A stretch of DNA of 56,618 bases from a virus: IMG/VR virus record IMGVR_UViG_3300045391_004489. One strand, written 5' to 3'. The notes below the pieces were generated by a model that had not been told where the DNA came from, searched no databases, and worked only from the letters and a program-made list of their open reading frames with translations. The position numbers and the translations under genes are program-made. This document shows positions 3,716 through 56,618 of the stretch, in pieces (position 1 is the stretch's first letter; each line of letters starts with the position of its first letter).

Positions 3716-4234
3716 TCAGACGGCAGAACGGTTGAAAGAGTGGCTGATCCCACACAGAGTGCAGCGACGAACGTCAGCTGAAGTAAAACCCTCCAGAGCC
3801 GTGCCGCGGAACGCGTGATGGTTATGGAAGTACCCGAATATGGTGGGTCGACGGCACTGGAAGCACCAGTCGTGTCGGCCGTACTCGTGGATGAGGTCGC
3901 GGCTGAGGCTCCATACGACGAGGCGTACGCCTTCTGGGCCCGGGATCGGCTTGCCTCCCGACGTCGCGCGGACTCGACGATGAGGTGGGCCATACGATCG
4001 AGCCCTTGACTGGACAGCCGCGTCGTAAATGTCGTCGAGCCGGTCGAGAACGTACCCGGCAGCAGTCTGGTATCCACTGACTTCCTTCTTCGTCCACTTG
4101 GAGTCTTCGGTCTTCTTGACCCACAGTCGCCAGGGCTTGACGCCCGGCTCGACCTGGGTGGGGTACAGCGCCGGCGTCGTCTCGAAGTACTTGCGGAACG
4201 TCTTGTCCTCGAGAAGCGTGGGCAGCGGGATCAC
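3716..4234 (-). CDS. Hypothetical protein with C-terminal CxxC...CxxC zinc-ribbon-like motif
   Basis: ORF track; WCFQCRRP...RRCTLCG. Confidence 0.6.
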   Translation of the reverse strand: MIPLPTLLEDKTFRKYFETTPALYPTQVEPGVKPWRLWVKKTEDSKWTKKEVSGYQTAAGYVLDRLDDIYDAAVQSRARSYGPPHRRVRATSGGKPIPGPEGVRLVVWSLSRDLIHEYGRHDWCFQCRRPTIFGYFHNHHAFRGTALEGFTSADVRRCTLCGISHSFNRSAV

Positions 4235-4503
4235 AGGATATTCCCATCGTTGGACTGGGTCATGGCGTCGCCGGCGAAGTGCTTCATCTGGTCGTAGAAC
4301 TTGACCGTCGGAAAGCCGTTGGCGGGGTCGTGAAGGGTGTGGAGGTTTCGCTCCTCCAACAGGTGGTACCGCTGCATCACACGAATCATGTCCTGTGCAG
4401 CGTCGAGATCGATCACCGCCTGGCCGGTCGTGATCGCCACGTAGGCGATCTCGATGAGCTTGGAGGTGGCCGCGAGCGCGGTCTCTCGGGTGGGGTGCGT
4501 CAT
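4231..4503 (-). CDS. Hypothetical protein (90 aa)
   Basis: ATG 4503 preceded by aggag; MTHPTRETALAATSKLIEIAYVA... Confidence 0.6.
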   Translation of the reverse strand: MTHPTRETALAATSKLIEIAYVAITTGQAVIDLDAAQDMIRVMQRYHLLEERNLHTLHDPANGFPTVKFYDQMKHFAGDAMTQSNDGNIL

Positions 4504-4513
4504 TGTGTTTCTC

Positions 4514-4957: not shown

Positions 4958-7036
4958 ATGACGACTATTAGCAAAGCCGACCAGATACTGCGCATCATAT
5001 CGCAGGCATGGGGGCCCGAGGACAATACGGGATACTGCTTTTTCCCCTGGGTGGAAGGGCCTGATAGGAAGTTCCGTAGTAAGTCGTTTCAGTGGCCGCA
5101 GCAGCGGGACGATATATTGCAGCACATGCTGGCGCACGAGGGTGACGACCTCTATTGGTGTCCGCTACTCTTCGCCCAGGACGCCCGCCAAGTGCAGTAC
5201 GCCACCGAGGAGTATGCGCTCTGGGCTGACCTCGACGAGGCAGATCCTCGAAAGATCGACCCGAAGTGGAAGCCCTCGATCGCCTGGGAGACTTCGCCGG
5301 GCAGGTACCAGGCTCTCTGGCTACTGAACGACCCCGATGAGGAGGATCTCTACGGGGCTTCTCAGAAGGGTGCGGACAACCAGCGTATGACGAGGCTGGT
5401 CGACGCCGACCCCAGTGGGTGGGACACCACGCAATTGCTGAGGCTGCCGGGCTGGACCAACCACAAATCTCAGTATGAAGATGAGAACGGGGAGTTTCCC
5501 CAGGGCAAGCTGCTGTGGTCCAAGGGGCCTCGATACAACGCGGAGCAGTTCAATGAATTGCCGGCGATCGATGACGAAGGGGAAGAGCTCCCCCTCGACG
5601 CAGAGCTCTTCGAGAAGATCGATGGAGTCGAGCCTGGTGAGGTGCTCGACCGAGTAAGACTCTTGCTCCCAAAGAGTGTCCCTGAGCGAATGGAGCGAGG
5701 GCCTCAGGAGGGCGAAGATCGCAGCAAGCCGATGTTCTACTTCATGCGTTGCCTGGCGGACGTTGGCTGCAGCATCCAGGAGATAGTGGCGGTCATACGC
5801 CCCACACCTTGGAATAAGTTCAGGGGTCGTAAGACTGAACTCGAAGACCTGGCGGAGCAGGCAAAGACTGCCTGGACTAAACGCAAGAAGCAGTTCAGCG
5901 AGACGGTCGACTACACTGGCTTGAATGTCAACGACTTCATAGCCGCGGCGAAGCCGCCCAAGTGGCTGGTGCGCAACATGATCGTCCGGGGCAATGTGGG
6001 ATTCATCGGGGGTGAACCCAAGGCCCGCAAGAGCTGGGTGGCACTTGACCTGGCGATGTCGGTCGCGGGATCTGCCAGCGCACACCACATGCACTTTCTC
6101 GATCAGTTCGCGGTTGAACAGTCCGGTCCAGTGTTGTACTTTGTGTTGGAGGACTCTCCACACCTGATGTCGGACCGCATCAAGAAGGTGTGGGAAGCCA
6201 AGACAAAGTACGACGGTACACAGCTCATTCTGCACGAAGGGGGGGTATACAGTGAACCTCGGGGCTCCCGTATCGAAGCGCCCTTAACTCTGGTACATGG
6301 CCACCAGGTCAATTTCTCTGACAAGGACTCAATGGCGAAGGTTCAACAGCGAATTCGACAGGGTTACACGATGGCAAACGGTAAGAAGTGGGCCTACGCC
6401 CTGGTCATCTTCGACACCTTCATGCGCAGCGTTGGTGGCTCAGACATCAACCACATGGGCGAGATGATGAACATAGTCCTAGACCCACTCACCCGAATGG
6501 CCAAGCGAGAGAACACGACAATACTGCTCGTGCACCACTTCAACAAGTCAAGAGTCGAGGGTGAGATACGCGGTGGCACCCGGCTGCTGGGCTCTCAGGC
6601 GCTGCACGCCTGGGCCGAGGACTCACTCTACCTCACCGCCCGCGAACACGGCTTCATCATGGAGCTAGAGTCTAAGGCCGCCCCCTCCGGGCGGTGGGAC
6701 TTTAAGACCGATCCCACACAGCGCACCTGGGCCCCAACGTACACCCTCGACGCAGGAGCTCAGGTACACGACATCGACTTCTCAACAGTGGAGCGGCCCA
6801 AGCCCCGCCGCGGGTCAAACACACCCAAGCTCAGCGGCAACTCAGCCAAAGTGTGGCGCGCCTGCCTCAGGCTACAGCCCGAAGGCCCCCAACGATGCTC
6901 AGACATCTCTCGCGCAGCGGGCCTCTCACCCGCAGCCACCTACAACTGTCTCAGAAAGCTCCAGGAGATCGGCCGCGCGGCCCAAACCCCCGACAAACTT
7001 TGGACAGTCCACGCGAAGCCTGACCCCGTCAACTGA
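4958..7036 (+). CDS. Primase-polymerase / RecA-like replicative helicase fusion with C-terminal wHTH
   Basis: N-terminal RepB/prim-pol-type motifs (ALWADLDEAD, SPGRYQALWLL, LRLPGWTNHK); AAA_25-like P-loop GGEPKARKSW and LVHHFNK; 692 aa. Confidence 0.9.
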   Translation: MTTISKADQILRIISQAWGPEDNTGYCFFPWVEGPDRKFRSKSFQWPQQRDDILQHMLAHEGDDLYWCPLLFAQDARQVQYATEEYALWADLDEADPRKIDPKWKPSIAWETSPGRYQALWLLNDPDEEDLYGASQKGADNQRMTRLVDADPSGWDTTQLLRLPGWTNHKSQYEDENGEFPQGKLLWSKGPRYNAEQFNELPAIDDEGEELPLDAELFEKIDGVEPGEVLDRVRLLLPKSVPERMERGPQEGEDRSKPMFYFMRCLADVGCSIQEIVAVIRPTPWNKFRGRKTELEDLAEQAKTAWTKRKKQFSETVDYTGLNVNDFIAAAKPPKWLVRNMIVRGNVGFIGGEPKARKSWVALDLAMSVAGSASAHHMHFLDQFAVEQSGPVLYFVLEDSPHLMSDRIKKVWEAKTKYDGTQLILHEGGVYSEPRGSRIEAPLTLVHGHQVNFSDKDSMAKVQQRIRQGYTMANGKKWAYALVIFDTFMRSVGGSDINHMGEMMNIVLDPLTRMAKRENTTILLVHHFNKSRVEGEIRGGTRLLGSQALHAWAEDSLYLTAREHGFIMELESKAAPSGRWDFKTDPTQRTWAPTYTLDAGAQVHDIDFSTVERPKPRRGSNTPKLSGNSAKVWRACLRLQPEGPQRCSDISRAAGLSPAATYNCLRKLQEIGRAAQTPDKLWTVHAKPDPVN

Positions 7037-7058
7037 CTCGCGCGTGCCCGCGGGCGTA

Positions 7059-7078
7059 ATTTACCCTTCGGGTAAAAT
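7059..7078 (+). terminator. Hairpin plus T-rich tail after the primase gene
   Basis: aatttaccc-ttcg-ggtaaaattt. Confidence 0.55.
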
Positions 7079-7095
7079 TTAACAAATGATAAGGT

Positions 7096-7180
7096 GGCAA
7101 GGGCGATCATGGGTCGCCCCTTGCCTCATCCCGATGCACTACTGTGATCGCGGGCTCCGCTTCGCTGCGCTCCCGCGATC
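7096..7180 (+). terminator. Two further GC-rich hairpins
   Basis: ggcaagggcga/tcgccccttgcc (7096-7125) and gatcgcggg/cccgcgatc (7146-7180). Confidence 0.45.
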
Positions 7181-7229
7181 CCAATAATGAACGGGGCGAC
7201 CAATCGCCGACGTCGAGGTGATCACGGGG

Positions 7230-7258
7230 TTGATATGATAGGGCGGGTTTGATATACT
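7230..7258 (+). promoter_or_regulatory. Promoter (TTGATA-N17-TATACT)
   Basis: ggTTGATAtgatagggcgggtttgaTATACT, then SD gaggagg before ATG 7281. Confidence 0.7.
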
Positions 7259-7280
7259 GATGCGTGAGAGGAGGTAAGAC

Positions 7281-7568
7281 ATGAATAGCAAGAAGTCCGC
7301 CGCCCCGGTGATGGGCACCATCCACCGTGGCATGCCCATGTACCGAGTGGTACTGTGCGGACAGGTTGAGTTCGACACACTGAGTGACAGGGAGTACACT
7401 CCTCATCTGCCGATTGTGACTTGCGCCTCCTGTATACAGATAGAGAAGGAGCTGCGAGCAAAGCCCGGCAAACCGCTGCCTAAAAGCCGCACCCGGCGGA
7501 TCATCGACACCCTGGGTATGGGCGAACCTGTCAATCTAGAGGAAATCTGGAACAGTGACTATGAGTGA
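7281..7568 (+). CDS. Hypothetical protein
   Basis: ORF track; strong SD. Confidence 0.6.
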   Translation: MNSKKSAAPVMGTIHRGMPMYRVVLCGQVEFDTLSDREYTPHLPIVTCASCIQIEKELRAKPGKPLPKSRTRRIIDTLGMGEPVNLEEIWNSDYE

Positions 7569-8148
7569 GTTTCTCGACGGGTACCCCTCCGCCGGGCTTG
7601 AGCCAGTCGCGGGCGACCGCGGCTGGTGCAAGGTCTGCGGCGGTGTCCTGGTGTGGACAGAGATCGACGCCCTGATGTCGGGCGGATGGCGACATCTTAT
7701 CGAGTTTAACTACGGCCGAGGATCGTCCGAGAATCACATGCCCGAGCTGGGCGACGTGATGTTCGACACTCCTACCTCGCCCTCGGCCCTGCAGATCACG
7801 CTGGTCTACGCCGACCAGATTCTGCACAACGGCGCGGCGACCATGCCGACCGGCTGTGAGGGCGCCGAGGCCCTGGACCTGCTGGACCACTGGAAGGCCT
7901 CGCTGATCATGAGCCCCTCGTGGGTCAATCTGCTGCAGGTCAAGCTGGCGCAGGTCAGGGCGTGTGGAAGCGGCGATGACGACGATCTACAGGCCTGCCT
8001 GGTAGAGCTGATGGGAGCATGTTTTGCGTGGATCAGGGGTGGCACAAAGACTGTGCAGGGAGATCGAGTGGCTGATAGCGGAGATGTTCTACATATGCTG
8101 GGTGCTGACGGCTATCCTCTTCGTCGTGGTCGGGATAACGCCGCCTGA
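7555..8148 (+). CDS. Hypothetical protein
   Basis: ORF track; overlaps the upstream stop; start may be ATG 7561. Confidence 0.6.
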   Translation: MTMSEFLDGYPSAGLEPVAGDRGWCKVCGGVLVWTEIDALMSGGWRHLIEFNYGRGSSENHMPELGDVMFDTPTSPSALQITLVYADQILHNGAATMPTGCEGAEALDLLDHWKASLIMSPSWVNLLQVKLAQVRACGSGDDDDLQACLVELMGACFAWIRGGTKTVQGDRVADSGDVLHMLGADGYPLRRGRDNAA

Positions 8149-8167
8149 GCACGAGCGCGCCGGACTT

Positions 8168-8195
8168 TTGGCACTGGCGACGGGGATGATAGCAT
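8168..8195 (+). promoter_or_regulatory. Promoter (TTGGCA-N16-TAGCAT), near-leaderless
   Basis: The -10 is followed by 7 nt and then ATG 8203. Confidence 0.5.
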
Positions 8196-8202
8196 ATCGG
8201 TC

Positions 8203-8475
8203 ATGGGCATTGACGATGTCAAGATCAAGATCGCGGACGCATACCAGGCGCAGCTGATACGCAGGTCGATGGAGCTGCAGGACTTTCATCTCAGGCCGTT
8301 CCACGCGGAGCACGACAAGAACACGGTCTGCCTGACGTGCTTCAACATGAGGCTGCAGCGGGCCGGCTGGACCTACAAGTTCGGCGAGCGGGCCGTGGTG
8401 GTCAACCGATACGCAGGAGGAAAGGGTAGAATGACGAGGGCGGGGATGCCGGGGTCGAAGGTGAGGACACGATGA
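8203..8475 (+). CDS. Hypothetical protein
   Basis: ORF track. Confidence 0.55.
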   Translation: MGIDDVKIKIADAYQAQLIRRSMELQDFHLRPFHAEHDKNTVCLTCFNMRLQRAGWTYKFGERAVVVNRYAGGKGRMTRAGMPGSKVRTR

Positions 8476-8918
8476 CGCCTGACGAGAAGAGAGCGCTGGT
8501 CACCGCGCGGCTCGCGGATCGACTGCGGGAGGTGTTATTCGGCAGCGAGGAGACCAAGGACTGGACGGACATGGCCACGCGGGTGATGAACGGCTCGCCG
8601 GCGGAGCAGGTCGGATCGACCATCGTTCGATCGCACCAGCCTGGACTGTGGGAGGTCATGGCTCCGCTGATCCAGAGTCTCGAGGTGCGAGCCATACTGG
8701 AGAACAAGCTGGAGCGGTATCAGGGCATGCCGCTCACCGAGACGGTGGTGAGGGATATTCTCGAGGACATAGACCGCGTGATGGACACCATAAGCGGGGT
8801 CGTCGAGAATCGCAGACCGGTCTCAAGGAGTTTCAGCAACTCGGCAGTGTGGGGCGGTAGAATGGCTAGCGGAGCCGGGGGCGCCGTCCGGGCCGGTGGG
8901 GGGGAGGACGACGAGTGA
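8472..8918 (+). CDS. Hypothetical protein
   Basis: ORF track; ATGA coupling. Confidence 0.6.
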   Translation: MTPDEKRALVTARLADRLREVLFGSEETKDWTDMATRVMNGSPAEQVGSTIVRSHQPGLWEVMAPLIQSLEVRAILENKLERYQGMPLTETVVRDILEDIDRVMDTISGVVENRRPVSRSFSNSAVWGGRMASGAGGAVRAGGGEDDE

Positions 8919-9175
8919 CCGGGTGGCAGAGAGTCAAGCCTGAGCACAGATCGCTGGACAACGCCTTCACACGGGGCTCTGAGGAGCCCGGCGAGATGCA
9001 CTGGATCAAGCAGGCGCAGGGCAAGAAGGGGGGAGTCAAGCGAGAGACCTGGTGCGGGCTCGTCGAGAACATACAGAGTCTGGGCCGGGGGAGGTTCAAG
9101 GCCTCGTACGCTCGTCAGAATGTGACCTGTATGGACTGTCTGGTGGCTGAGGGACTGGGTACGGAGGGTGAGTGA
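8915..9175 (+). CDS. Hypothetical protein
   Basis: ORF track; coupled. Confidence 0.55.
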   Translation: MTGWQRVKPEHRSLDNAFTRGSEEPGEMHWIKQAQGKKGGVKRETWCGLVENIQSLGRGRFKASYARQNVTCMDCLVAEGLGTEGE

Positions 9176-9477
9176 TGGATCTGCGGGAGTTCATCCGGTG
9201 GCGCGAGAGTCTGGATGAGCAGGGACGGGCGGTGGCTCGAGAGATCGCCGCGGACATACTGTTCGGCGAGGTGTTCGCCGGCGACGCTCAGCTGTTCGAT
9301 CTGAGGGACGCGATAGTCGCACGAGTGGAACGACGACTCGCTGCCGCTGACGCTGAAGTCCTGGCTCGATGGCAGATCATCGAACCGAGCCAGGAGATGG
9401 AGATGGAGATGGAGATGGAGATGGAGGGTGGGACGCATGAGCCGCAGATCGGACGCTCAGAGGATCGTACGGACTGA
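9172..9477 (+). CDS. Hypothetical protein with (Glu-Met)n repeat
   Basis: ORF track; contains the GAGATG microsatellite. Confidence 0.55.
   Translation: MMDLREFIRWRESLDEQGRAVAREIAADILFGEVFAGDAQLFDLRDAIVARVERRLAAADAEVLARWQIIEPSQEMEMEMEMEMEGGTHEPQIGRSEDRTD
9394..9426 (+). repeat. Hexanucleotide microsatellite (GAGATG)x5.5
   Basis: gagatg repeated in tandem; encodes EMEMEMEMEME. Confidence 0.95.
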
Positions 9478-9667
9478 GCTCAGCAAGTGTCTGGTCGACC
9501 GTAGGATTAGGGAGAACATGGACGTCGGTGATCTGAGGGTCGTAGGACGACGGATCGTCGACGCGCTGCAGCCCATGTTCACCGAGCTGTGGAAGAACAA
9601 CTGTCCGGGCGGAGAGATCTCGTTCGAGGAGTGGTACATGGACCCTGAGGGGGAGCTCGATGGCTAG
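9428..9667 (+). CDS. Hypothetical protein
   Basis: ORF track; start may be ATG 9437. Confidence 0.5.
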   Translation: MGRMSRRSDAQRIVRTELSKCLVDRRIRENMDVGDLRVVGRRIVDALQPMFTELWKNNCPGGEISFEEWYMDPEGELDG

Positions 9668-10307
9668 GTCTGGTGCTGGTGCTGGGAACGAGCGGATGGT
9701 GCCCATGAGTATGGTGGACACCATGGTGAGGTCGAGGCTCGCGGAGATAGGGGCCGCCGCGGGAGTGAGCCACTCGAGGGTCGGTGTGGAGGTGTTGTTC
9801 AAGCTTCCGCCAGCCCTGCTGCTGGTGTACGAGCTGCTGTGGGATCTTAACATGTACGGTGAGAATAGCCCGGAGGTGGATGGTGGTAGGGACACTCGGG
9901 GGGCTGAAGCGGAGGTTGGAAAGGTGGGAGACCCTAAGAATCGGGGAGGTGGCGGTGGGGGGAGGACTCGAGACACTGACGCTTCTCGATCGCGGATGGC
10001 TGAAGTGGTGGTGCGCTCTGGCGGTAGCGCTCGGCGTGCTGCGCGTGGGGCATCACGGGGAAGCACTGCTCGAACTGCGGGAGTCGGAAACAGGGAGGCG
10101 GCAGAGATCAAGGCTCGTGCGGACAAGCGGCTTCGTGCTGTCGCTCGTGATGTGGCTGCTGAGTTGGCTGCTCTTGGTCTGGGGCTTGATCTTGCTACCG
10201 GGGAACTGATGGTTCAGGTGGGCGGAGTCGGGAATAAGGGGAATGGGGGGAATGAGGGTTTGGTCACCGGCGACGCGATGCGCGACGCAATCGATAAGCG
10301 CGATTAG
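9660..10307 (+). CDS. Hypothetical Gly/Arg/Ala-rich protein
   Basis: ORF track; codon usage (many NNT codons) differs from neighbouring genes. Confidence 0.45.
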   Translation: MARSGAGAGNERMVPMSMVDTMVRSRLAEIGAAAGVSHSRVGVEVLFKLPPALLLVYELLWDLNMYGENSPEVDGGRDTRGAEAEVGKVGDPKNRGGGGGGRTRDTDASRSRMAEVVVRSGGSARRAARGASRGSTARTAGVGNREAAEIKARADKRLRAVARDVAAELAALGLGLDLATGELMVQVGGVGNKGNGGNEGLVTGDAMRDAIDKRD

Positions 10308-10334
10308 GTGCCTCTCTAGGAGTGATGAGAGCTG

Positions 10335-10401
10335 TCTCTGCGCGATGGGTATATGCCGGGCCGATATATGAGTCGGTGAGGTGACGCTCATCGCGCAGAG
10401 A
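10335..10401. repeat. 13-bp perfect inverted repeat with 41-nt spacer
   Basis: tctctgcgcgatg (10335-10347) / catcgcgcagaga (10389-10401). Confidence 0.85.
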
Positions 10402-10647
10402 AGCGTTTAGGAGGGTCGGTGATCAGGGCTGGATCAGGGACGATCATACGTCATTCGTGGTTACACTATGATGGGTGAGGAAACTACGGGGTGCGAGAAG
10501 AGGTTGAGGGGGTGCCACAGTTGCTGGCGGTTCGTTCTCACTGAAATCTACGGGTCAAACTCCAGGCTGGGGTCCAGCTAACACTGTGGCTGGAGTTTAG
10601 TCAACACTCTACAGAGAGCTAGGAGGATTTACATAGCTATTCCCAGA

Positions 10648-10688
10648 GAAAATCCAAGCAAACATAAGGGAAAATCTGTCAAAAATCC
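10648..10688. other. Three phased A-tracts (GAAAATCY)
   Basis: gaaaatcc 10648, gaaaatct 10670, aaaaatcc 10681; spacings of 22 and 11 bp. Confidence 0.7.
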
Positions 10689-10941
10689 GCGAGGAGGTCG
10701 ACTAATCGTATTAGAACGTAGATACACTAAAAAACGCCTGACCTGCGGCGGGACATGACTCAACATCAGGAGTCGAATATCAACTACTAAAACATTTTGA
10801 GGGAGATTCCCAGATGTTTCTGGTGGTATCCCCGAGAAAAACCGGCCACGACACGGGTAAATCTGGGTTTAAACCGTCAGATATTCAGTGTTATGCTCGT
10901 CGGCCGAGGACGAAACGCTTCATAACAGAATCCGACGGCCC

Positions 10942-11015
10942 GCTCGCGGCGTGTGGAAAGTCATGACTGCTCGCGGTGTGGAGTGGACGTTTGTTTGATC
11001 GCGGCTCGCGGCGTT
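10942..11015. repeat. Iteron-like direct repeats GCTCGCGGYGT x3
   Basis: Copies start at 10942, 10969 and 11004, immediately upstream of the AT-rich tract. Confidence 0.7.
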
Positions 11016-11022
11016 CGCGAGG

Positions 11023-11054
11023 ATATATATGCATATTTATATAAGATTATTTTA
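11023..11054. other. AT-rich tract (possible DNA unwinding element)
   Basis: atatatatgcatatttatataagattatttta inside an otherwise GC-rich genome. Confidence 0.6.
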
Positions 11055-11202
11055 GGACTCTTGGGACTTTCCTGCCGGCCAGGAGCTCCGATCTCCGGAT
11101 TCTGCTGGAATCGCCACGGATCAGGATGTAGGGGTGGAAAACGGACATACTGGGACGTACCCGACGCGCGTTACGTGACCGTGAGAGGGCGTTTGGCGCC
11201 CC

Positions 11203-11240
11203 GTGATTGATATGATCCATACATGGATCATATCAATCAC
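11203..11240. repeat. Perfect palindrome, 18-bp arms with 2-nt centre
   Basis: gtgattgatatgatccat-ac-atggatcatatcaatcac. Confidence 0.95.
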
Positions 11241-11337
11241 GTAACGGGGGTCAAAGGCAGGAAAAGCTAAGCCACATATCGGGTGGATAACAAAGAATGG
11301 AATTCCTAGGAACTCCGTAGGGACATGATCGGACGAC

Positions 11338-11370
11338 GTGGTATGCTAGCATTCCGGCTCCGCTGATCTT
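11338..11370. repeat. Conserved intergenic element, copy 1 (contains ATGCTAGCAT palindrome)
   Basis: gtggtatgctagcattccggctccgctgatctt; 27 of 33 positions identical to 14823..14855. Confidence 0.8.
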
Positions 11371-11527
11371 GTCTCAGGGGGCTCGTGAGGGGGTGGCGAT
11401 TATATAACGCGCGCCCGCGCGTATACCACGGTACATGAGTGTTGTCAAGGACCGTGACCTAACTGAGGGTATGATCTTCGTTACCAAAAGATCTTGAAAA
11501 GTCGTCCGCTTTCGGGTGATTTGTCAC

Positions 11528-11556
11528 TTGACAGGGGGTCGGGGGAGTGAGATGAT
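11528..11556 (+). promoter_or_regulatory. Promoter (TTGACA-N17-GATGAT)
   Basis: cacTTGACAgggggtcgggggagtgaGATGAT; a 9-bp stem ggtcggggg/cccccgacc brackets the -10. Confidence 0.55.
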
Positions 11557-11594
11557 TTACCTATCGCCCCCCGACCGGGGGGCAAACCGAAGGG

Positions 11595-11996
11595 ATGATC
11601 AAGATGGCGAAGGTCGAGTACTCCACGAAGTCGCTCAGCGAGGAGATCGGCACCACCCCGAAGGAGCTGCGCAAGTTCCTGCGCAGCGACATGAGCGGCA
11701 TCGAGTCGGTGGGCAAGGGGGGCCGCTACACGATCGGCCTGACCGCCACCCAGCTCGGCAAGATGAAGAAGAGTTTCGCGAAGTGGGGCGAGGAGCTCGA
11801 GGCCAAGCGCGCCGCCAACGCCCAGCCGCTCACCGAGCAGACGGAGATCGACGCGCTCGCGATGATCGACGGGGAGAACGACGCGCCGATCGAGAACGAC
11901 GAGGAGATCGGCGACGACGCCGACGAACCCACCGACGCCGATCTGAACATGATCGACGAGGAGATCGAGCTCGACGAGGACGAGATCGAGGCCTGA
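11595..11996 (+). CDS. HTH-type DNA-binding protein with highly acidic C-terminal tail
   Basis: Paralogue of the 1504..2100 N-terminus; start may be ATG 11604; tail NDEEIGDDADEPTDADLNMIDEEIELDEDEIEA. Confidence 0.7.
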   Translation: MIKMAKVEYSTKSLSEEIGTTPKELRKFLRSDMSGIESVGKGGRYTIGLTATQLGKMKKSFAKWGEELEAKRAANAQPLTEQTEIDALAMIDGENDAPIENDEEIGDDADEPTDADLNMIDEEIELDEDEIEA

Positions 11997-12009
11997 TCTC
12001 AACGCCCTA

Positions 12010-12036
12010 CCACTCACCCCTTCGGGGGTGCAGTGG
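12010..12036 (+). terminator. Hairpin terminator
   Basis: ccact-cacccc-ttcg-ggggtg-c-agtgg. Confidence 0.6.
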
Positions 12037-12243
12037 TGTGTATGCCGACGCGGGTATCTCAAGGGGTTGGTGTGGAGCGTTGAGGATACTGCGTAGTATG
12101 TATGGGGGTGTATGTACACCGCGCGTACACGTCGGTATAAAGGGGTGTATCTGTCGTAGGGCGCCTCTGAGACAAGATCAAATAAGGTGGTATGCTGGCA
12201 TTGGGGACGACTTGATCTTGCGCCAGCGCGGCTAAATAGCTCC

Positions 12244-12272
12244 TTGACAACGTGGCGACTGGTGGATAGGAT
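12244..12272 (+). promoter_or_regulatory. Promoter (TTGACA-N17-TAGGAT)
   Basis: ccTTGACAacgtggcgactggtggaTAGGAT; leader hairpin ttgggg/ccccaa and SD aaagga. Confidence 0.6.
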
Positions 12273-12304
12273 TGGGGTATAACCCCAACCGAAAGGATCA
12301 TACG

Positions 12305-12526
12305 ATGAACGCTCGCGAGGCTCGCCGACGCAACCTCATCGCCTCCGGCGCCCCCCGACCGATCAATGTCGGATCGGTGATCACTCTGACTGAGCAGGTC
12401 GGTTCCCTGCCGGTCGACACCCGGGGTCTGGTCAAGGACTTCAACGACGATCGGTCCCACGCCTGGGTGACCCTGCTCGACGGTCGCGACAAGATCCTCC
12501 CGGTGAGCGCGATGCGCGCGGTCTGA
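12305..12526 (+). CDS. Hypothetical protein (73 aa)
   Basis: ATG 12305 after the SD; in frame with ORF 12272..12526. Confidence 0.6.
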   Translation: MNAREARRRNLIASGAPRPINVGSVITLTEQVGSLPVDTRGLVKDFNDDRSHAWVTLLDGRDKILPVSAMRAV

Positions 12527-12532
12527 CCCTCC

Positions 12533-12561
12533 TTGACACGACGCGGTTGCCGGGATATGAT
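12533..12561 (+). promoter_or_regulatory. Promoter (TTGACA-N17-TATGAT), leaderless
   Basis: The -10 is followed by exactly 6 nt and then ATG 12568. Confidence 0.75.
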
Positions 12562-12567
12562 CGAGGT

Positions 12568-12855
12568 ATGACCTCGACACCGCACACGAACTGCACCCAC
12601 CCCGCCACGAAGGCTGCGCGCGCCGCCTGCCGCCGGCAACGCGCCGCTGCCTCCACCGCCAACCGCGAGGCTCTCGCCGCGATCCTGACCTCCTTCTACG
12701 ACAACTCCGGCGACAGCGAGGAGATCGCCGCGAAGATCGACCTGCTCGCCGCACGCACCGGCGACGAGGCTCTCCGCACCGCCGCTCGCGGCTACTACGA
12801 CGGGTCGCTGACCATCGAGGAGATGATCTACACCGCTGCGCAGTCGAATCTCTGA
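12568..12855 (+). CDS. Hypothetical protein with N-terminal HTxCTHPATKAARAxCR module
   Basis: MTSTPHTNCTHPATKAARAACRRQRA...; paralogous N-terminus in 12997..13380. Confidence 0.65.
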   Translation: MTSTPHTNCTHPATKAARAACRRQRAAASTANREALAAILTSFYDNSGDSEEIAAKIDLLAARTGDEALRTAARGYYDGSLTIEEMIYTAAQSNL

Positions 12856-12866
12856 CATCCCCCGCT

Positions 12867-12886
12867 GAGGCGCCCACAGGGCGCTC
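12867..12886 (+). terminator. Hairpin terminator
   Basis: gaggcgccc-aca-gggcgctc. Confidence 0.5.
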
Positions 12887-12962
12887 TCGCGCTGTGTGGG
12901 GCAGTTGTATATGCCAGCATACCTGACACCTCATGACCGCCTCAAACAGCCCGATCTCGGCC

Positions 12963-12990
12963 TTGACATGGTTCCATGGGGTGGTATGAT
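12963..12990 (+). promoter_or_regulatory. Promoter (TTGACA-N16-TATGAT), leaderless
   Basis: The -10 is followed by 6 nt and then ATG 12997. Confidence 0.75.
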
Positions 12991-12996
12991 TTACCT

Positions 12997-13380
12997 ATGA
13001 CTCCGACCTCTCACACCGAATGCACGCACCCCGCGACCAAGGCGGCTCGCGCCAGGTGCCGTGCGCGTCGGGCTCAGTACATCAAGGATCACACCTTCGA
13101 GATCGAGTATAACCGCCTTGACGCTCTCACACAGGAGCGACACGCAGGTCGCAACGGTCTGATGACGACCGCCATGCACGCTCTCTGTGCAGGTGCCGAG
13201 AACGCCGACGCCACCGAAGGATACGAACCGGGCACTGAGGCCTGGTACTCACTCGCGATCTCGGGGTTCTGGTCGCTCATGAACGACACCGCCGGCGGTG
13301 ACCTGCGGTGGATGTACAACATCGAAGACTGCACCCGTGAAGAGCTCGAGGATCCGCCCTACAACTGGCTCGACGATTGA
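12997..13380 (+). CDS. Hypothetical protein with N-terminal HTxCTHPATKAARAxCR module
   Basis: MTPTSHTECTHPATKAARARCRARRA... Confidence 0.65.
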   Translation: MTPTSHTECTHPATKAARARCRARRAQYIKDHTFEIEYNRLDALTQERHAGRNGLMTTAMHALCAGAENADATEGYEPGTEAWYSLAISGFWSLMNDTAGGDLRWMYNIEDCTREELEDPPYNWLDD

Positions 13381-13395
13381 GATTAGGGGATTGAT

Positions 13396-13593
13396 ATGAC
13401 CAAGATCACCGAGATCGCGCTCGAGGTCGACAAGGTCGCCCAGGAGGCTGGCGAGGACCCTTACGAGATCTTCGTGAACGCGAGGAAGGGCGAGAACCTC
13501 GACTCGCCGCCTGTCGCTTACATCGCCCACATGATCGACAAGTGCTCGCAGTTCGACATCGCGCAGATCGACCGATTGGTCTTCGGGGAGTGA
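13396..13593 (+). CDS. Hypothetical protein (65 aa)
   Basis: SD agggga; second gene of a two-gene unit. Confidence 0.6.
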   Translation: MTKITEIALEVDKVAQEAGEDPYEIFVNARKGENLDSPPVAYIAHMIDKCSQFDIAQIDRLVFGE

Positions 13594-13606
13594 CATGGTT
13601 GCCGCC

Positions 13607-13635
13607 TTGACATTCGAGGTGGTAGGCGCTAGTAT
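13607..13635 (+). promoter_or_regulatory. Promoter (TTGACA-N17-TAGTAT), leaderless
   Basis: The -10 is followed by 6 nt and then ATG 13642. Confidence 0.75.
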
Positions 13636-13641
13636 CTAGGT

Positions 13642-13833
13642 ATGACGCTGAACACCGAACTCGCGATACTGCTCACCCAACGCTCCGATCTCATCCAGGT
13701 ACGCAAGGGCAAGACCCTGGAGCAGATGATCAAGTTCCTGATTGACGACTCAGGGTTCGACGACATCCACCCGGAAGATCGGTTCGAACTCGAACTCGCT
13801 CTCTCGGAGGAGCTCATGGAGATATTCTGCTGA
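13642..13833 (+). CDS. Hypothetical acidic protein (63 aa)
   Basis: ORF track; leaderless start. Confidence 0.65.
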   Translation: MTLNTELAILLTQRSDLIQVRKGKTLEQMIKFLIDDSGFDDIHPEDRFELELALSEELMEIFC

Positions 13834-13843
13834 AGAGCTCTGC

Positions 13844-13861
13844 GCGCCCCTCTGGGGGCGC
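13844..13861 (+). terminator. Hairpin terminator
   Basis: gcgcccc-tctg-ggggcgc. Confidence 0.55.
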
Positions 13862-13960
13862 CAGTAGCGTGTATGAGGTCATGCCTCATGCCAGCAATCC
13901 CTTCGATCCTGAGGCGCTCACAGAGCTTCCTACGGCGCTTAAAATCGCTCGCTGGCCGCC

Positions 13961-13989
13961 TTGACTGCCGGCGCAGGAGGGGGTAGTAT
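13961..13989 (+). promoter_or_regulatory. Promoter (TTGACT-N17-TAGTAT), leaderless
   Basis: The -10 is followed by 6 nt and then ATG 13996. Confidence 0.75.
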
Positions 13990-13995
13990 ATAGGC

Positions 13996-14286
13996 ATGAC
14001 GACATACAACATCACCACCGCCCGCCGCACCCCCAACCGCCGGGTGACGAAGTTCACGAAGATCATCGTCTCGCTGATCTTGGCGCCCTTCTTGATCGCT
14101 GCCTTCGTCGGAACGGGCATCGGAATCGCCGACGCGATCCACCACCCCGCTGCCGCCACCGTCACGAAGAGTGACAACACCGTCACGAACTACAACGACG
14201 GTTGGATCGACGCCAAGCGCGACGACTGCGAGCAGGGGGTCAAGATCGCCTGCCAGTGGCTTGATCAGCAACACATCTCCCACTAA
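13996..14286 (+). CDS. Membrane-anchored small protein (96 aa)
   Basis: TM segment IIVSLILAPFLIAAFVGTGIGIA after a basic N-terminus. Confidence 0.65.
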   Translation: MTTYNITTARRTPNRRVTKFTKIIVSLILAPFLIAAFVGTGIGIADAIHHPAAATVTKSDNTVTNYNDGWIDAKRDDCEQGVKIACQWLDQQHISH

Positions 14287-14294
14287 ACATCTCG

Positions 14295-14324
14295 CCCTGC
14301 CCCCTTGACACCGAGGGGGCAGGG
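14295..14324 (+). terminator. 10-bp perfect hairpin whose loop contains the next -35 hexamer
   Basis: ccctgccccc / gggggcaggg; loop ttgacaccga. Confidence 0.6.
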
Positions 14325-14333
14325 TGGTATTAT
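14305..14333 (+). promoter_or_regulatory. Promoter (TTGACA-N17-TATTAT), leaderless
   Basis: The -10 is followed by 6 nt and then ATG 14340. Confidence 0.7.
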
Positions 14334-14339
14334 CTAGGC

Positions 14340-14576
14340 ATGAACAAAAACGAACTCGACGCCCTCGCTATCTCGCTCCTCGCCACCGACAACATCGCCG
14401 ACATCATCGCCGACGGGCACGACCAGGCGACTGACGACGAAAACGGCTTCGCCATCGCCGCCGGCAGCTTGATCGAAGACTACCGCGAACTGAACGACAT
14501 CTCCGACGAAGACGCTTTCGATCTTGAAGAGATCATCTGCGAGATGATGATCAACGGCGAATCCGCCAACGACTGA
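14340..14576 (+). CDS. Very acidic small protein (78 aa)
   Basis: By my count 22 Asp/Glu versus 2 Lys/Arg; leaderless start. Confidence 0.65.
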   Translation: MNKNELDALAISLLATDNIADIIADGHDQATDDENGFAIAAGSLIEDYRELNDISDEDAFDLEEIICEMMINGESAND

Positions 14577-14578
14577 CC

Positions 14579-14608
14579 TTGACACAACGAGGCAACACGA
14601 GGTATGAT
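14579..14608 (+). promoter_or_regulatory. Promoter (TTGACA-N18-TATGAT), leaderless
   Basis: The -10 is followed by 6 nt and then ATG 14615. Confidence 0.7.
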
Positions 14609-14614
14609 ATTCCT

Positions 14615-14773
14615 ATGATGATGACGATGATCGATCGAATCCCGACCCGCTTCTTCGAAACCCGCGCTGCGCTGATCGCCTACCGCGTCGCCCGACTCTT
14701 CGATCGCCACGAATCGGGGATCGCCGCCGAAATCCGCGACGCGATCCGCGACAACTCCGATCTCCTCGACTGA
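14615..14773 (+). CDS. Hypothetical protein (52 aa)
   Basis: In-frame ATG of ORF 14579..14773 at the leaderless position. Confidence 0.5.
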   Translation: MMMTMIDRIPTRFFETRAALIAYRVARLFDRHESGIAAEIRDAIRDNSDLLD

Positions 14774-14782
14774 TCTCCTGCC

Positions 14783-14802
14783 AGGGGCGCTCACGCGCCC
14801 CT
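14783..14802 (+). terminator. Hairpin terminator
   Basis: aggggcg-ctcacg-cgcccct. Confidence 0.55.
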
Positions 14803-14822
14803 CTCAGGGCGTATCGCGCCGT

Positions 14823-14855
14823 GTGGAATGCCAGCTATCCGGCTCCACTGATCAT
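14823..14855. repeat. Conserved intergenic element, copy 2
   Basis: gtggaatgccagctatccggctccactgatcat; see 11338..11370. Confidence 0.8.
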
Positions 14856-14899
14856 GCCTCAACGAGCTTTGTATGACGTGGCAAGTTGATGCCATCGAC

Positions 14900-14929
14900 T
14901 TGACAACGCAGCATGACGGGGGATATATT
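14900..14929 (+). promoter_or_regulatory. Promoter (TTGACA-N18-TATATT)
   Basis: acTTGACAacgcagcatgacgggggaTATATT; leader with SD gaaggga. Confidence 0.6.
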
Positions 14930-14962
14930 AGGGGTATCAACAAAACAACGAAGGGAAATCTG

Positions 14963-15208
14963 ATGAAGATCGAACTGACTGATGCGAAGTATCTGATCAT
15001 CCAGCTGAACAAGATCGAGAACGGCGAACCGATCATCCGCCGGCAGGGGGAAGATTATGCGGAAATGCAGAATCTCCCCCTCAATTACTGCACGGAATGC
15101 GATTCCCAGATTGATGATATCTGGAATGACGGGCATATCATGATTGGGGATTGGAAGAATCCCATCATTGCGATTTGCTGCGAGGGATATCACCCCCTTG
15201 AGAAATAG
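14963..15208 (+). CDS. Small Cys-rich protein (81 aa), AT-rich codon usage
   Basis: ATG 14963 after the SD; CTECDSQ...CCEGYH; noticeably lower GC than neighbours. Confidence 0.55.
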   Translation: MKIELTDAKYLIIQLNKIENGEPIIRRQGEDYAEMQNLPLNYCTECDSQIDDIWNDGHIMIGDWKNPIIAICCEGYHPLEK

Positions 15209-15230
15209 ATTAATCTGAGATAATCTGAAT

Positions 15231-15266
15231 GCATATATATCCCTTTGATAAAGGGGGTATATATGC
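15231..15266 (+). terminator. Near-perfect AT/GC hairpin
   Basis: gcatatatatcccttt-gat-aaagggggtatatatgc. Confidence 0.55.
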
Positions 15267-15307
15267 GTGTATATGGGGGAGTAATGAAGGATTAAAATAG
15301 TCTATCC

Positions 15308-15366
15308 ATGTATATCTATGTATATCTCAGAATGAACTGATTGATCCGATCATCTATGTATATCTC
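15308..15366. repeat. Direct repeats ATGTATATCT x3 (15-mer atctatgtatatctc x2)
   Basis: Copies at 15308, 15318 (tandem) and 15356. Confidence 0.9.
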
Positions 15367-15526
15367 GTTGTGTCTGGATGTGTCCGATTTGAACCCCCCC
15401 GGGTGGAATCTCCGGATCTTCGTGATTGTCCATCTTACAGACGGTGGTGAGCGGGGGCTGAGGATCTCCCCCGAAACTTTTAACACCGTTACCTCCTCCC
15501 ACCTTCTCGTGTCCACCACACAAGAA

Positions 15527-15556
15527 TTGACAGCACCCTTCCCCAGGTCATAAACT
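15527..15556 (+). promoter_or_regulatory. Promoter (TTGACA-N18-TAAACT)
   Basis: aaTTGACAgcacccttccccaggtcaTAAACT; ACTGTCAT is repeated twice downstream. Confidence 0.55.
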
Positions 15557-15603
15557 GTCATCGACGGACATCACTGTCATATCTCGCGTGAGGGGGTCCT
15601 ACC

Positions 15604-16971
15604 ATGGCTGGCGAAAACTCCCACCTGAGGTTCCCCAAGCGGTCGGGATACCTCTCCTCGGGTCACCCCAAGCCGGGCGACCCAGGCATCCGCAGCGAAC
15701 GAGGCGAGCGCAACGCCCGACGCCGTGAGGCGGGTCTCCGCATCGTAGCGACCGAGATGGAGAACTCCCCGATCGCCCAGGAGGAGCGGTCTCGACCCCG
15801 CGTAGGCCGTAAGTCCAACCGCACCTTCGACAACCGCGGCGGTCTCGCCCCCCTCTCCACACAGATCGACCCTGTGGGCCGCCAACTCCTCGACGAACTC
15901 GACCCCGAGGATCCTGCTTACCGCAGCAAGTATCGGGGCATCATCGCCGAACACACCCGGGTGTGGGAGGAGCTGGGCGCCACGCCGCTGATCATAGACT
16001 TCTCCAACGTGCAGGAGCCGATCGCCCCGCAGCGACTTCACCCCTCCCACAAGCTCAGCCAGCACCCCGAGCGGCCGCTTTACGTGTGGGCCTTCAAGAA
16101 CGCCCACGCTGCGTATCCGCAGAAGAGTGACGAGGGTCGACGACACCGAGAGGAGTGGTACTGGGAGCAGATGGACAAGGGCATGCTGCCGCCCACGTTC
16201 AATCCCTACGCCCCTGGATCGCCCAAACACCACGCCTTCGAGAACCGCCACGTGCTGGTGGACGACAGACCGACGTCCAAGACCTTCTCCGCGGTCACTC
16301 GTCGCGACACCGGCGAGCCCCAGGAGGTGCTCGACACTCCCCGGCAGCTCCGAGCCCGAGCTCGTCGCAAGCTGCAGGCCGGTGGCAAGCTCTCGGAGGA
16401 GGAGTTCGTCGCTCTGTGTGGAAAACCCATCGAAGAGTGGGACCTTGAGGAGCTCGCCAAGGGTCGTACCAAGGACATCAACGGCGAGTTCAAGGGTCGC
16501 GCTCCCTCCGCCTACATGGCCCGGGAGACCCAGGAGCGCATCGAGACGCTGTTCAAGCAGCGGGTGCGTGGTTCGATGAACGAGACGACGGTCAACGCTT
16601 TGTCGACGCTGTCCCAGGTGCTTGACAACGATGACGTGGACATGCGGGGCAAGCCGGTCGTGGCCGCCTCCACGAAGGTGGACGTGGCGAAATTCTTGGT
16701 CGAACACCTGCTGGGCAAGCCCAAGCAGACCGTGGAGAGTGATATCTCCGTCAAGCTGCAGGGTGTTCTTGCCTCCGTGATGGTGGCGCCGGAGCACGCC
16801 ATGCCGCCGGCGGGCTCCACGGACCCGGTCTCGCCCACGGGCCGTATGTTCGCCGGTCAGCGGGGCTACCGCCAGGACTACGAGGACAGCGAGCTGAAGG
16901 CTCTTGAGCGCGCCGGCATCATCGACGCGGTCGTGGTGGACGATGACGACCTAGAGGAGGGTGGAGAGTGA
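15604..16971 (+). CDS. Hypothetical protein (455 aa), basic N-terminus and acidic C-terminus
   Basis: ORF track; SD gaggggg; no motif recognised, and a small-terminase-like DNA-binding role is only a guess. Confidence 0.7.
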   Translation: MAGENSHLRFPKRSGYLSSGHPKPGDPGIRSERGERNARRREAGLRIVATEMENSPIAQEERSRPRVGRKSNRTFDNRGGLAPLSTQIDPVGRQLLDELDPEDPAYRSKYRGIIAEHTRVWEELGATPLIIDFSNVQEPIAPQRLHPSHKLSQHPERPLYVWAFKNAHAAYPQKSDEGRRHREEWYWEQMDKGMLPPTFNPYAPGSPKHHAFENRHVLVDDRPTSKTFSAVTRRDTGEPQEVLDTPRQLRARARRKLQAGGKLSEEEFVALCGKPIEEWDLEELAKGRTKDINGEFKGRAPSAYMARETQERIETLFKQRVRGSMNETTVNALSTLSQVLDNDDVDMRGKPVVAASTKVDVAKFLVEHLLGKPKQTVESDISVKLQGVLASVMVAPEHAMPPAGSTDPVSPTGRMFAGQRGYRQDYEDSELKALERAGIIDAVVVDDDDLEEGGE

Positions 16972-47068: not shown

Positions 47069-47270
47069 TCGTCCGAAGTACATCTTCACCGTTATCGCCA
47101 ACGCCGCCGGGGGTTACGACGTCACCCGTCGAACCGCTGGTTCGGCACAGTCCTGGGTCATGGTATCGTATGACGACCGACAGGACGCCGACAACCTCAA
47201 GCAGCAGCTCGACATGCTGGAGCTCAGGGTGTGGGCTCGACGCGTACGACAGGCCAGGAAGAAGGGCTGA
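47046..47270 (+). CDS. Hypothetical protein (74 aa)
   Basis: In-frame ATG of ORF 47031..47270. Confidence 0.5.
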   Translation: MTNAKKTDRPKYIFTVIANAAGGYDVTRRTAGSAQSWVMVSYDDRQDADNLKQQLDMLELRVWARRVRQARKKG

Positions 47271-56548: not shown

Positions 56549-56618
56549 AATCTTGTGGGCTGTGGGGGTTAGTGTGGCAGACCCGAAGGTGTGTAGTTCC
56601 TCGCCCGGGAAACTTCGC
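56549..56618. repeat. Direct terminal repeat, right copy
   Basis: Exact copy of bases 1-70; implies closed/complete genome (physical DTR or circular-assembly overlap). Confidence 0.95.

Follow-up and report, generated by a model that had tools for sequence, protein, structure and literature searches.

A conserved low-GC non-coding island as the probable left edge of a long terminal repeat in a clade of uncultivated actinophages

The viral DNA of IMG/VR record IMGVR_UViG_3300045391_004489 (56,618 nt, GC content 60%; "the window" below always means this whole stretch) is the genome of a siphovirus-type actinophage in which two rightward gene blocks are separated by a 1.3-kb island (positions 10308-11594) with no obvious gene. 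What is the function of such an island? A preliminary description, drawn up from the letters of the window, had proposed a replication origin and/or an early-to-middle switch. Comparison with related phages identifies the island as a conserved non-coding cis-regulatory region. We further consider it probable that it forms the left edge of a direct terminal repeat (DTR) of ~4.85 kb, extending roughly from 10.6 to 15.44 kb, which would carry the early genes together with their control region; the existence of a DTR in this phage and the exact position of its left cut are what we infer from sequence comparison. A physical end of the genome probably lies within the island. As a class, the island is best explained as a kind of region already known in DTR phages, the clade and some details of the cis-elements being new.

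Nucleotides 1-70 of the window are identical to nucleotides 56549-56618, so the record is a circle-closed assembly of ~56,548 bp with an arbitrary start. It is because of this circular closure that the preliminary description missed the genome-end reading. The genes for the portal, the major capsid protein, the tape measure protein and an SNF2 helicase were identified in the window in addition to those listed in Table 1.

Conservation and non-coding status of the island

Relatives were collected through the gene immediately downstream of the island (the first early gene; Table 1), which identified 20 relatives in a large protein database, and their contigs were compared. The comparison set comprises ten independent metagenomic phages, several of them represented by contigs of 56-58 kb; L026, a further IMG/VR relative, lies outside the analysis. 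An equivalent low-GC gap of 1.1-2.0 kb (47-53% GC) is present in the ten phages. The gene order of the clade is primase-helicase, small genes, a gene encoding ~215 amino acids, the gap, a helix-turn-helix (HTH)-like gene, small genes, a second gap and a gene encoding ~400-460 amino acids. The island was correctly described before as lower in GC (0.52 against 0.60 for the whole genome), and together with the second gap it accounts for the sole stretches of the genome below 50% GC. The individual features listed in the preliminary description are all there, at the positions given for them or no more than one base away.

A protein-coding gene in the island, whether genuine or recently decayed, is very improbable. 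No open reading frame (ORF) of the island displays the strong bias of this genome for G or C at third codon positions (GC3), which bears out the earlier statement that it holds no convincing ORF. Variable alignment columns in the conserved block 11165-11560 are spread evenly over the three codon phases (60/65/65), as against 15/13/28 in the adjacent gene, and in a six-frame comparison translated matches between phages accompany conserved DNA whatever the frame or strand. The preliminary description had named a conserved protein-coding gene in relatives as a finding that would speak against its reading; none was found, neither codon periodicity nor a conserved frame being present. A leaderless minus-strand ORF that starts in the palindrome described below was considered and discarded: its start and frame shift among phages, it is missing in L016 and its GC3 is 0.43-0.63. 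Gene callers do place ORFs of 69, 98 and 73 amino acids in the islands of L007, L008 and L010, and the 98-amino acid ORF, which is 83% identical between L007 and L010, carries its own promoter copy, but these small ORFs sit in insertions absent from the window.

The insertion that brings the 98-amino acid ORF (L007, 5377-5673; L010, 5042-5338) into the island also brings a separate copy of the early promoter module, which suggests that early genes are acquired as promoter-plus-gene cassettes.

Candidate ends of a long direct terminal repeat

The large terminase of the window is 61.6%, 60.4% and 60.0% identical, over 97% of the protein, to the terminases of its closest isolated relatives, the actinophages Shrew (from Curtobacterium), Huwbert and Triscuit (both from Microbacterium); the next-best phage reaches 40%. 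The major capsid protein is 45-48% identical to the proteins of the same isolates and the primase-helicase 35-37%. The long DTRs of these isolates are experimentally defined (exactly 4512 bp in Shrew and 3811 bp in Huwbert, ~3.76-3.8 kb in Triscuit (PMC7302621)), whereas the genome ends of the window phage are predicted from sequence. In Shrew and Huwbert the primase-helicase is followed by a run of small genes and then by a non-coding gap within which the DTR starts. Small early-type genes, some of them for HTH proteins, lie inside the DTR, and its end falls in a second non-coding gap, which is AT-rich. This two-gap layout is found in the window and in nine of its metagenomic relatives. The three isolates share with the window the closest terminase and capsid proteins, the gene order and the second AT-rich gap. 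They differ in that their proteins are 35-62% identical to those of the window, their left ends are not detectably homologous and the island DNA has no similarity to theirs; its comparison with 50,697 isolated phage genomes gave no match.

The right junction can be compared directly with the isolates. In Shrew and Huwbert the right end of the DTR is preceded, at a distance of 40-41 nt, by GAACCCCCCC(C)G and followed, ~17 nt further on, by (A/G)GCTCTCT. The + strand of the window has a single C7 run, at 15394 in the second gap, within TTTGAACCCCCCCGG, and the second gaps of eight relatives contain the extended element GTGTCCGA(A/T)TTGAACCCCCCCGGGT...GATTGTCCATCT...GGACGGT...GGCTGAGAGCT...CCCCAAA. 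The right-boundary signature common to Shrew, Huwbert and the clade consists of GAACCCCCCCG, 40-42 nt, the cut, and GAGAGCT/AGCTCTC ~17 nt further; the right DTR boundary is predicted within this element (Table 1). A profile of the right junction was built from the metagenomic clade alone and then scanned over the loci of the isolates. Its best matches are at 4452-4472 in Shrew, where the boundary is at 4512, and at 3759-3855 in Huwbert, spanning the boundary at 3811, where the clade sequence ending in CGGAC at the predicted cut aligns with GCGGAC ending at the boundary. It is very unlikely that both best matches fell on boundaries by chance. The repeat lengths implied for the clade (3.4-4.9 kb) bracket those of the isolates (3.8-4.5 kb). 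For one relative, two assemblies stop 87 and 105 nt beyond the predicted right cut, an anecdotal observation.

The second gap that contains the right junction (14773-15604) falls to a GC content of 0.39 and has GTATATC-type repeats. A small low-GC ORF (~14964-15207) is found there behind its own TTGACA promoter at 14900.

The candidate left end is an element of ~45 nt (the left junction element; Table 1) that occurs in nine of the ten relatives on the same strand and at a matching location, ~250-400 nt inside the island. Its consensus is roughly TGGTAGGCTGGKGTYTRGTnAACACTCC.GAGAGAGCTA, of which CTGG.GT...G......CTC is invariant. Across the element the GC content steps from ~0.52 down to ~0.42 and the number of A4/T4 tracts per 200 nt goes up from 0-1 to 3-6, in all eight of the eight phages compared; a comparable GC step is present at the real ends of the Shrew DTR and, in Huwbert, at the right end only. 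GAGAGCT is located 23 nt past the invariant CTGG in four phages and ~17 nt past the predicted right cut in four phages, the corresponding spacings in Huwbert being +20 at the left and +17 at the right. This spacing points to a left cut near 10594-10597. The element is the probable left boundary of the DTR, with the cut somewhere in ~10590-10626.

Several observations weigh against a terminal repeat. A profile of the left element compared with Shrew and Huwbert gave no match at their left junctions (all matches have E >3 and lie elsewhere), and it is because the profile misses the left ends of the isolates that we only infer the left-boundary role. The right-junction profile matches quoted above are themselves weak (E = 0.066 and E = 1) and persuade through their location alone. 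Starts of short contigs are not clustered at the predicted left cut, one out of eight falling within 35 nt of it. This one, JGI contig Ga0572181_0346006 (L023), is the equivalent of 10626-12221 from a 99.4%-identical strain and starts at 10626, just past the left element; since the seven other short contigs start elsewhere, its position is treated as a coincidence. The most distant relative, L001/L005, is devoid of both junction elements. The DTRs of the isolates have neither the promoter clustering (judged by a strict TTGACA pattern) nor the 11-bp tract phasing of the window, and the isolates also lack its palindrome. All promoters and the terminator discussed here are consensus or energy predictions. 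A by-eye resemblance of the left end to those of the isolates (GTGTCTGG...GAGAGAGCT) was set aside as a lead only, the profile search giving it no support.

The distant relative L001/L005 (IMGVR_UViG_3300012359_000033, 6571-7679) keeps the low-GC gap and the promoter module. It has many WWWnCGGAC and CGGACA words, yet not the junction elements, and may use a different end-recognition sequence.

The same facts can be read without a genome end. The phage would then have no DTR but a circularly permuted genome packaged by a headful mechanism, and the island would be a long intergenic stretch with a regulatory function, in which a terminator, curved DNA upstream, operators and the first early promoter are combined. 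Such a genome would suit the contigs of the window phage and of five relatives that pass through the island unbroken, but DTRs are commonly lost or collapsed by short-read assemblers (PMC10438801), so unbroken contigs are expected anyway. The contig ends that do not cluster at the left cut also suit it, as does the failure to detect homology between the left element and the left ends of known DTR phages. We regard this explanation as rather unlikely in view of a terminase ~60% identical to those of three DTR phages and 40% to any other, of the right-junction motif common to the DTR boundaries of the isolates, and of the two low-GC gaps that bracket an early block of 3.4-4.9 kb in every relative.

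Under the terminal-repeat reading, the virion DNA would be linear with the early-gene block at both ends, and short-read assembly would have collapsed the two repeat copies into a circle, giving the island its internal appearance. A strong hairpin would stop transcription of the primase-helicase operon. The ~45-nt left element would mark the edge of the repeat and would probably be part of the sequence recognized by the terminase or the end-processing machinery. Just inside the end, the 11-bp-phased A/T tracts would provide curved DNA or a one-sided protein-binding array, followed by a variable stretch that closes in a GC-rich and then an AT-rich segment. A leftward σA promoter embedded in the palindrome would make a non-coding transcript into the AT-rich run, and a small MerR-like DNA-binding protein would be expressed from the first of ten host-type early promoters.

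A comparable arrangement is known from well-studied phages. In T7, T5 and SPO1 the terminal repeat, or the region just inside it, carries early promoters for the host polymerase and the first-expressed genes. T7, whose repeat is 160 bp long, has short-repeat arrays beside it and a minor leftward host promoter near the left end. In the repeats of T5 and SPO1, small genes for early functions or host takeover are numerous, and each has a strong promoter of its own. The promoter-per-gene module at 11528-15527 of the window resembles the host-takeover regions of T5 and SPO1 in its layout. These are unrelated phages of unrelated hosts, and the likeness, which is one of layout alone, serves as a lead.

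If the island is the edge of a DTR, the circular-looking genome is that of a linear phage of ~61 kb with a DTR of ~4.85 kb. This would change the orientation, the annotation and the judgement of completeness of this genome, which belongs to a clade of uncultivated phages, at least ten in number, with Triscuit, Huwbert and Shrew as relatives. The right-boundary signature, together with the left element, could flag collapsed DTRs without recourse to reads. The palindrome with its promoter, the phased tracts, the WWWnCGGAC boxes and the promoter-per-gene cluster would be cis-elements for early control in actinophages.

Table 1. Coordinates of the features of the window discussed in the text.
Feature	Position	Strand	Sequence and remarks
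Primase-helicase (RepB-primase/AAA_25)	4958-7036
Long hairpin	10331-10405	+	directly after the stop codon (10307) of the 215-amino acid gene
Left junction element	10583-10625	+	ACTGTGGCTGGAGTTTAGTCAACACTCTACAGAGAGCTAGGAGG; ~45 nt
A4-A6/T4 tract array	10645-10845		short units GAAAATCC, GAAAATCT, AAAAATCC and others; ~11-bp phasing
Three GCTCGCGGYGT direct repeats	10942-11015	+	starts at 10942, 10969 and 11004
AT-rich run	11023-11054		32 nt; abuts the GC-rich segment
Invariant box	11138-11148	+	AAAACGGACAT; one WWWnCGGAC copy; AAA.CGGACAT invariant in five phages
Conserved non-coding control block	11165-11560		~390 bp
Palindrome	11202-11241		19-nt arms, 11202-11220 and 11223-11241; 2-nt spacer
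Leftward σA-type promoter (predicted)	11227-11254	-	TTGACC-16 nt-TG.TATGAT; overlaps the right arm of the palindrome
Second conserved element	11318-11377		GAGACATGATC...GGTATGCTAGCAT...GATCTTGTCTC; imperfect inverted repeat
First early promoter (predicted)	11484-11556	+	-35 TTGACA, 11528-11533; -10 GATGAT, 11551-11556; TG before the -10
First early gene	11604-11996	+	130 amino acids; GC3 0.98; small MerR-like winged-HTH protein
Right junction element	15380-15480	+	GTGTCCGATTTGAACCCCCCCGG...GATTGTCCATCTTACAGAC/GGTGG...GGCTGAGGATCTCCCCC; predicted cut (/) after 15442
Large terminase	22001-23413

Predicted transcriptional control elements and the first early protein

The island opens with a hairpin whose core is the 13-bp inverted repeat of the preliminary description (10335-10347 and 10389-10401, 100% complementary). 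The full hairpin (Table 1) has a DNA folding energy of -21.8 kcal/mol (z = -5.8; none of 200 shuffled sequences is as stable), and an RNA fold over the first 110 nt gives -54 kcal/mol. At least six relatives carry an equally long hairpin of different sequence at the equivalent site. This structure is probably the terminator of the primase-helicase operon.

The stretch that follows, 10406-10582, is unconserved among the relatives. The two gatcaggg copies noted earlier at 10421 and 10432 are present there, but only in the window. Two long-range complementary pairs also exist, shifted by one base from their first description: gccacagt lies at 10514 (not 10513) and pairs with 10583, and aaactccag starts at 10557 (not 10558), its partner ctggagttt being at 10590. 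These pairs are absent in all relatives and their fold is ordinary (z = -1.2). Both the pairs and the gatcaggg tandem were rejected as functional elements, being neither conserved nor thermodynamically remarkable.

A/T tracts begin 37-60 nt past the left junction element in all relatives and follow one another at 11, 22 or 33 bp. They are found at 10649, 10671, 10681, 10729, 10789, 10795 and 10837 in the window. Their density is 9.3 per kb against 0.8 per kb elsewhere (8-12 against 0.4-2 per kb across the islands of the clade). L016 has them at +37, 48, 59, 70, 92 and 114, with five units of 10-11 bp. The periodicity peaks at 11 bp with a power of 0.337, as against 0.131 ± 0.038 in the null model, and none of 2000 simulations reached this value. 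The three GAAAATCY copies previously placed at 10648, 10670 and 10681 are present, and the phasing of A-tracts, with its 11-bp power above the null, is real and general among the relatives. The array is probably either intrinsically curved DNA or an array of protein-binding sites.

The right third of the island is dominated by a control block that is 69-75% identical to those of L012, L014, L016 and L017, the 5' part of the adjacent gene being 71-75% identical. One of its elements is a palindrome. The preliminary description had recognized it as perfect and understated its size, giving arms of 18 bp at 11203-11240 (compare Table 1). The palindrome, present in five phages, is unusually stable (z = -8.1), and in L016 a compensatory G>A/C>T double change affects both arms. 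It is absent from the subclade formed by L007, L008, L010 and L019 and from L001. A role as one copy of a dispersed operator was dismissed, its half-site being found nowhere else in the genome (0.26 expected). The leftward promoter that overlaps the palindrome has a predicted start near 11220 and is directed into the AT-rich run. From 5 to 42 kb no other consensus promoter lies on the minus strand, and this one is found again in L012, L014, L016 and L017, with GGTCAA invariant; no ORF conserved downstream of it was found among the compared phages. The second conserved element is kept in eight phages. Since its fold is thermodynamically unremarkable (z = -0.4), its conservation is probably at the sequence level.

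A near-consensus leftward promoter without a conserved ORF downstream, a stable palindromic hairpin kept by compensatory change and strong conservation of non-coding sequence are what would be expected if the conserved block encoded a functional non-coding RNA, either the leftward product of the promoter in the palindrome or an extended structured leader of the first early gene. The preliminary description had likewise suggested structured small RNAs and recommended folding the region across homologues. This suggestion is not supported. No Rfam family was found at the gathering threshold, a permissive scan returning far-sub-threshold matches to microRNA hairpins on the palindrome only, and the covariation term of RNAalifold for the control block is unfavourable (+3.44), for which reason one large structured RNA across it was rejected. 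The ordinary fold of the second inverted repeat adds to this, and a DNA palindrome bound by a dimeric protein would show the identical compensatory change. A functional RNA is, for these reasons, a quite unlikely explanation of the conservation.

No other part of the island is as widely conserved as the region of the first early promoter, which still has 83-91% identity to the distant L001. The -35 and -10 sequences are spaced by 17 nt and the predicted start is near 11563. An A/T-phased region, AAAAGATCTTGAAAAGTCGTCCGCTTTCGGGTGATTTG, lies upstream and includes a WWWnCGGAC box in minus orientation (11504-11512). Ten of the 13 strong + strand promoters of the TTGACA-17-TAnnnT type in the genome are found at 11528-15527, one per small gene, and promoters cluster likewise in the relatives. 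The earlier designation of the island as a control hub or early-to-middle switch stands in its first part: it is a control region between the replication block and the small genes with their individual σA-type promoters. It is not an early-to-middle boundary. What the boundary divides is most likely the right (replication) arm on one side and, on the other, the early genes contained in a long DTR.

Eight proteins of the promoter-per-gene module were tested, and none of them has a significant Pfam domain. A C6...G6 hairpin, CCCCCCGACCGGGGGG, is found at 11567-11583, ahead of the first early gene in its predicted 5' untranslated region, and similar hairpins of a C-run and a G-run are present at the equivalent site in L008, L010 and L019.

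The word WWWnCGGAC is 24-fold more frequent in the non-coding ends (1.85 per kb) than elsewhere (0.08 per kb), and the islands hold 24 copies compared to 3.0 ± 1.6 in shuffled sequences. Its conserved sites are at 11138 (+ strand, ~60 nt to the left of the palindrome), at 11504-11512 (immediately before the -35 of the first early promoter) and at 15382-15390 (- strand, just before the C-run of the right junction).

The first early protein may bind these boxes, judging from its predicted structure. The AlphaFold model displays a winged HTH, a long helix and a disordered acidic tail, with a pLDDT (predicted local distance difference test) score of 67.5 overall and ~85 for residues 1-70. The top Foldseek matches (RacA, BmrR, NmlR, Par and BldC) are all MerR-type DNA-binding domains, all with E >0.07. 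Streptomyces BldC, RacA and pSK1 Par are structural neighbours of the protein, within the limits of weak matches and a model of moderate confidence. In strain L023 a 51-nt deletion and a frameshift in the acidic tail result in a protein of 88 amino acids; because of this shortened form the tail seems to be dispensable or variable.

Two small regulators offer parallels. BldC sites are defined by an AT-rich 4-mer and a C-G pair 4 bp away, as in the whiI site TGTGTCCGAATTG... (PMC5859096), a rule to which both the WWWnCGGAC boxes of the window and the right-junction word GTGTCCGA(A/T)TTG conform. BldC differs from the phage protein in lacking its long helix and acidic tail, and its repeats are 9 bp apart while the tracts of the window are 11 bp apart. 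Gp36 of mycobacteriophage D29 is a small MerR-like repressor that binds GC-rich direct repeats with GCGGC (PMC12266134). GCGGC occurs in two of the three GC-rich repeats of the window, but it is common in GC-rich DNA. By analogy, both parallels are leads for the predicted binding.

A possible replication origin and further features of the genome

The middle of the island contains the features that had suggested an origin. The three GCTCGCGGYGT copies are located where the preliminary description placed them, within 73 nt and with no other copy in the genome. To call them iterons is less apt: the units are only 11-12 nt long, their spacing is irregular (27 and 35 bp) and the array is lineage-specific, being absent from L012, L014 and L017 (L012 and L016 have single copies of GCTCGCGGY.TGTGGA). 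The neighbouring AT-rich run was described accurately and reaches 90% A+T over its richest 30 nt. It lies 431-450 nt past the left junction element in the window, L012, L014 and L017, with the core ATATATA.ATATTTATATATAG.

An origin in the island is plausible by analogy with the oriV of IncQ plasmids. The primase-helicase of the window matches the Pfam families RepB_primase (5.5e-14) and AAA_25 (4e-26), and among the solved structures of the PDB it matches solely RSF1010 RepB' (3H20) and RepA (1G8Y). RepB' primes on hairpin-forming inverted repeats after RepC and RepA have opened oriV (PMC8567376). The layout of oriV, measured on an IncQ1 plasmid sequence, is 22-bp iterons, a GC-rich stretch, an AT-rich stretch and, ~100 nt on, the ssiB and ssiA hairpins. 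The order of parts in the window runs parallel to this, from the repeats at 10942-11015 through the GC-rich segment and the 32-nt AT-rich run to the 40-bp palindrome 147 nt on; in both cases the inverted repeats lie ~100-150 nt beyond the AT-rich stretch.

The island may therefore be read as being, or containing, a replication origin of the IncQ oriV type or one like the primary origin of T7. A protein bound to the repeats, leftward transcription, or both would open the AT-rich run, a RepA-like helicase would be loaded, and hairpins extruded from the palindrome would serve the RepB'-like primase as priming sites. Both the AT-rich run and the palindrome have conserved positions, and the conserved leftward promoter is aimed into the run; the single 40-bp palindrome, kept in five phages, could form a hairpin on either strand. 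The parallel with oriV weakens at several points. The iterons of oriV are 20-22 bp long, follow a regular 22-bp period and bind RepC, unlike the short and irregularly spaced units of the window, which several relatives lack, and no RepC-like initiator was found among the early proteins. There are two separate 40-nt ssi sites in inverted orientation in oriV, as against one perfect palindrome here, which half of the clade is missing and which has no sequence similarity to ssiA; the window and oriV as a whole have no sequence similarity either. Cumulative GC skew, which has its maximum at 12277, was discarded as an origin marker, since it reflects a local G-rich stretch at 8-12.3 kb with no origin-type switch. 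On this evidence an origin here is plausible but less likely than not, and it is compatible with the terminal-repeat reading. It would provide a candidate origin site for phage primase-helicases of the RepB'/RepA type.

A wider and more speculative scheme, improbable as a whole, would unite these elements. Both low-GC ends of the DTR would form one protein-organised terminal structure, in which the early MerR/BldC/RacA-like protein or the BldC of the host would bind the tract units and the WWWnCGGAC boxes and bend the ends. Three places would have bound boxes: the vicinity of the palindrome, the first early promoter and the right junction. Three processes would be coupled in this way: early transcription under autoregulation, replication primed on hairpins, and cutting by the terminase at the repeat boundaries, with the RepB'/RepA-type primase-helicase initiating at the palindrome and the AT-rich run. 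If correct, the scheme would give the widespread actinophages with RepB'-type primase-helicases their first defined origin and end-processing module.

Some further features of the genome were recorded. The search of the window for tRNA and tmRNA genes returned none. The excess of G over C is strong at 8000-12277 (GC skew up to +0.37), a stretch that covers the small genes upstream of the island and includes an (EM)n repeat in the ORF 9172-9477. The family-A DNA polymerase (PolA, 49023-51545) has an N-terminal domain of the uracil-DNA-glycosylase superfamily (residues 22-147), which precedes the 3'-5' exonuclease and polymerase domains. There are two thymidylate-synthase-like genes, at 17916-18746 and 47231-48145. 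One is of the ThyX type (relatives match Pfam Thy1) and the other is a more distant homologue (phrog_160), which might be a dUMP or dCMP hydroxymethylase and hint at modified DNA bases.

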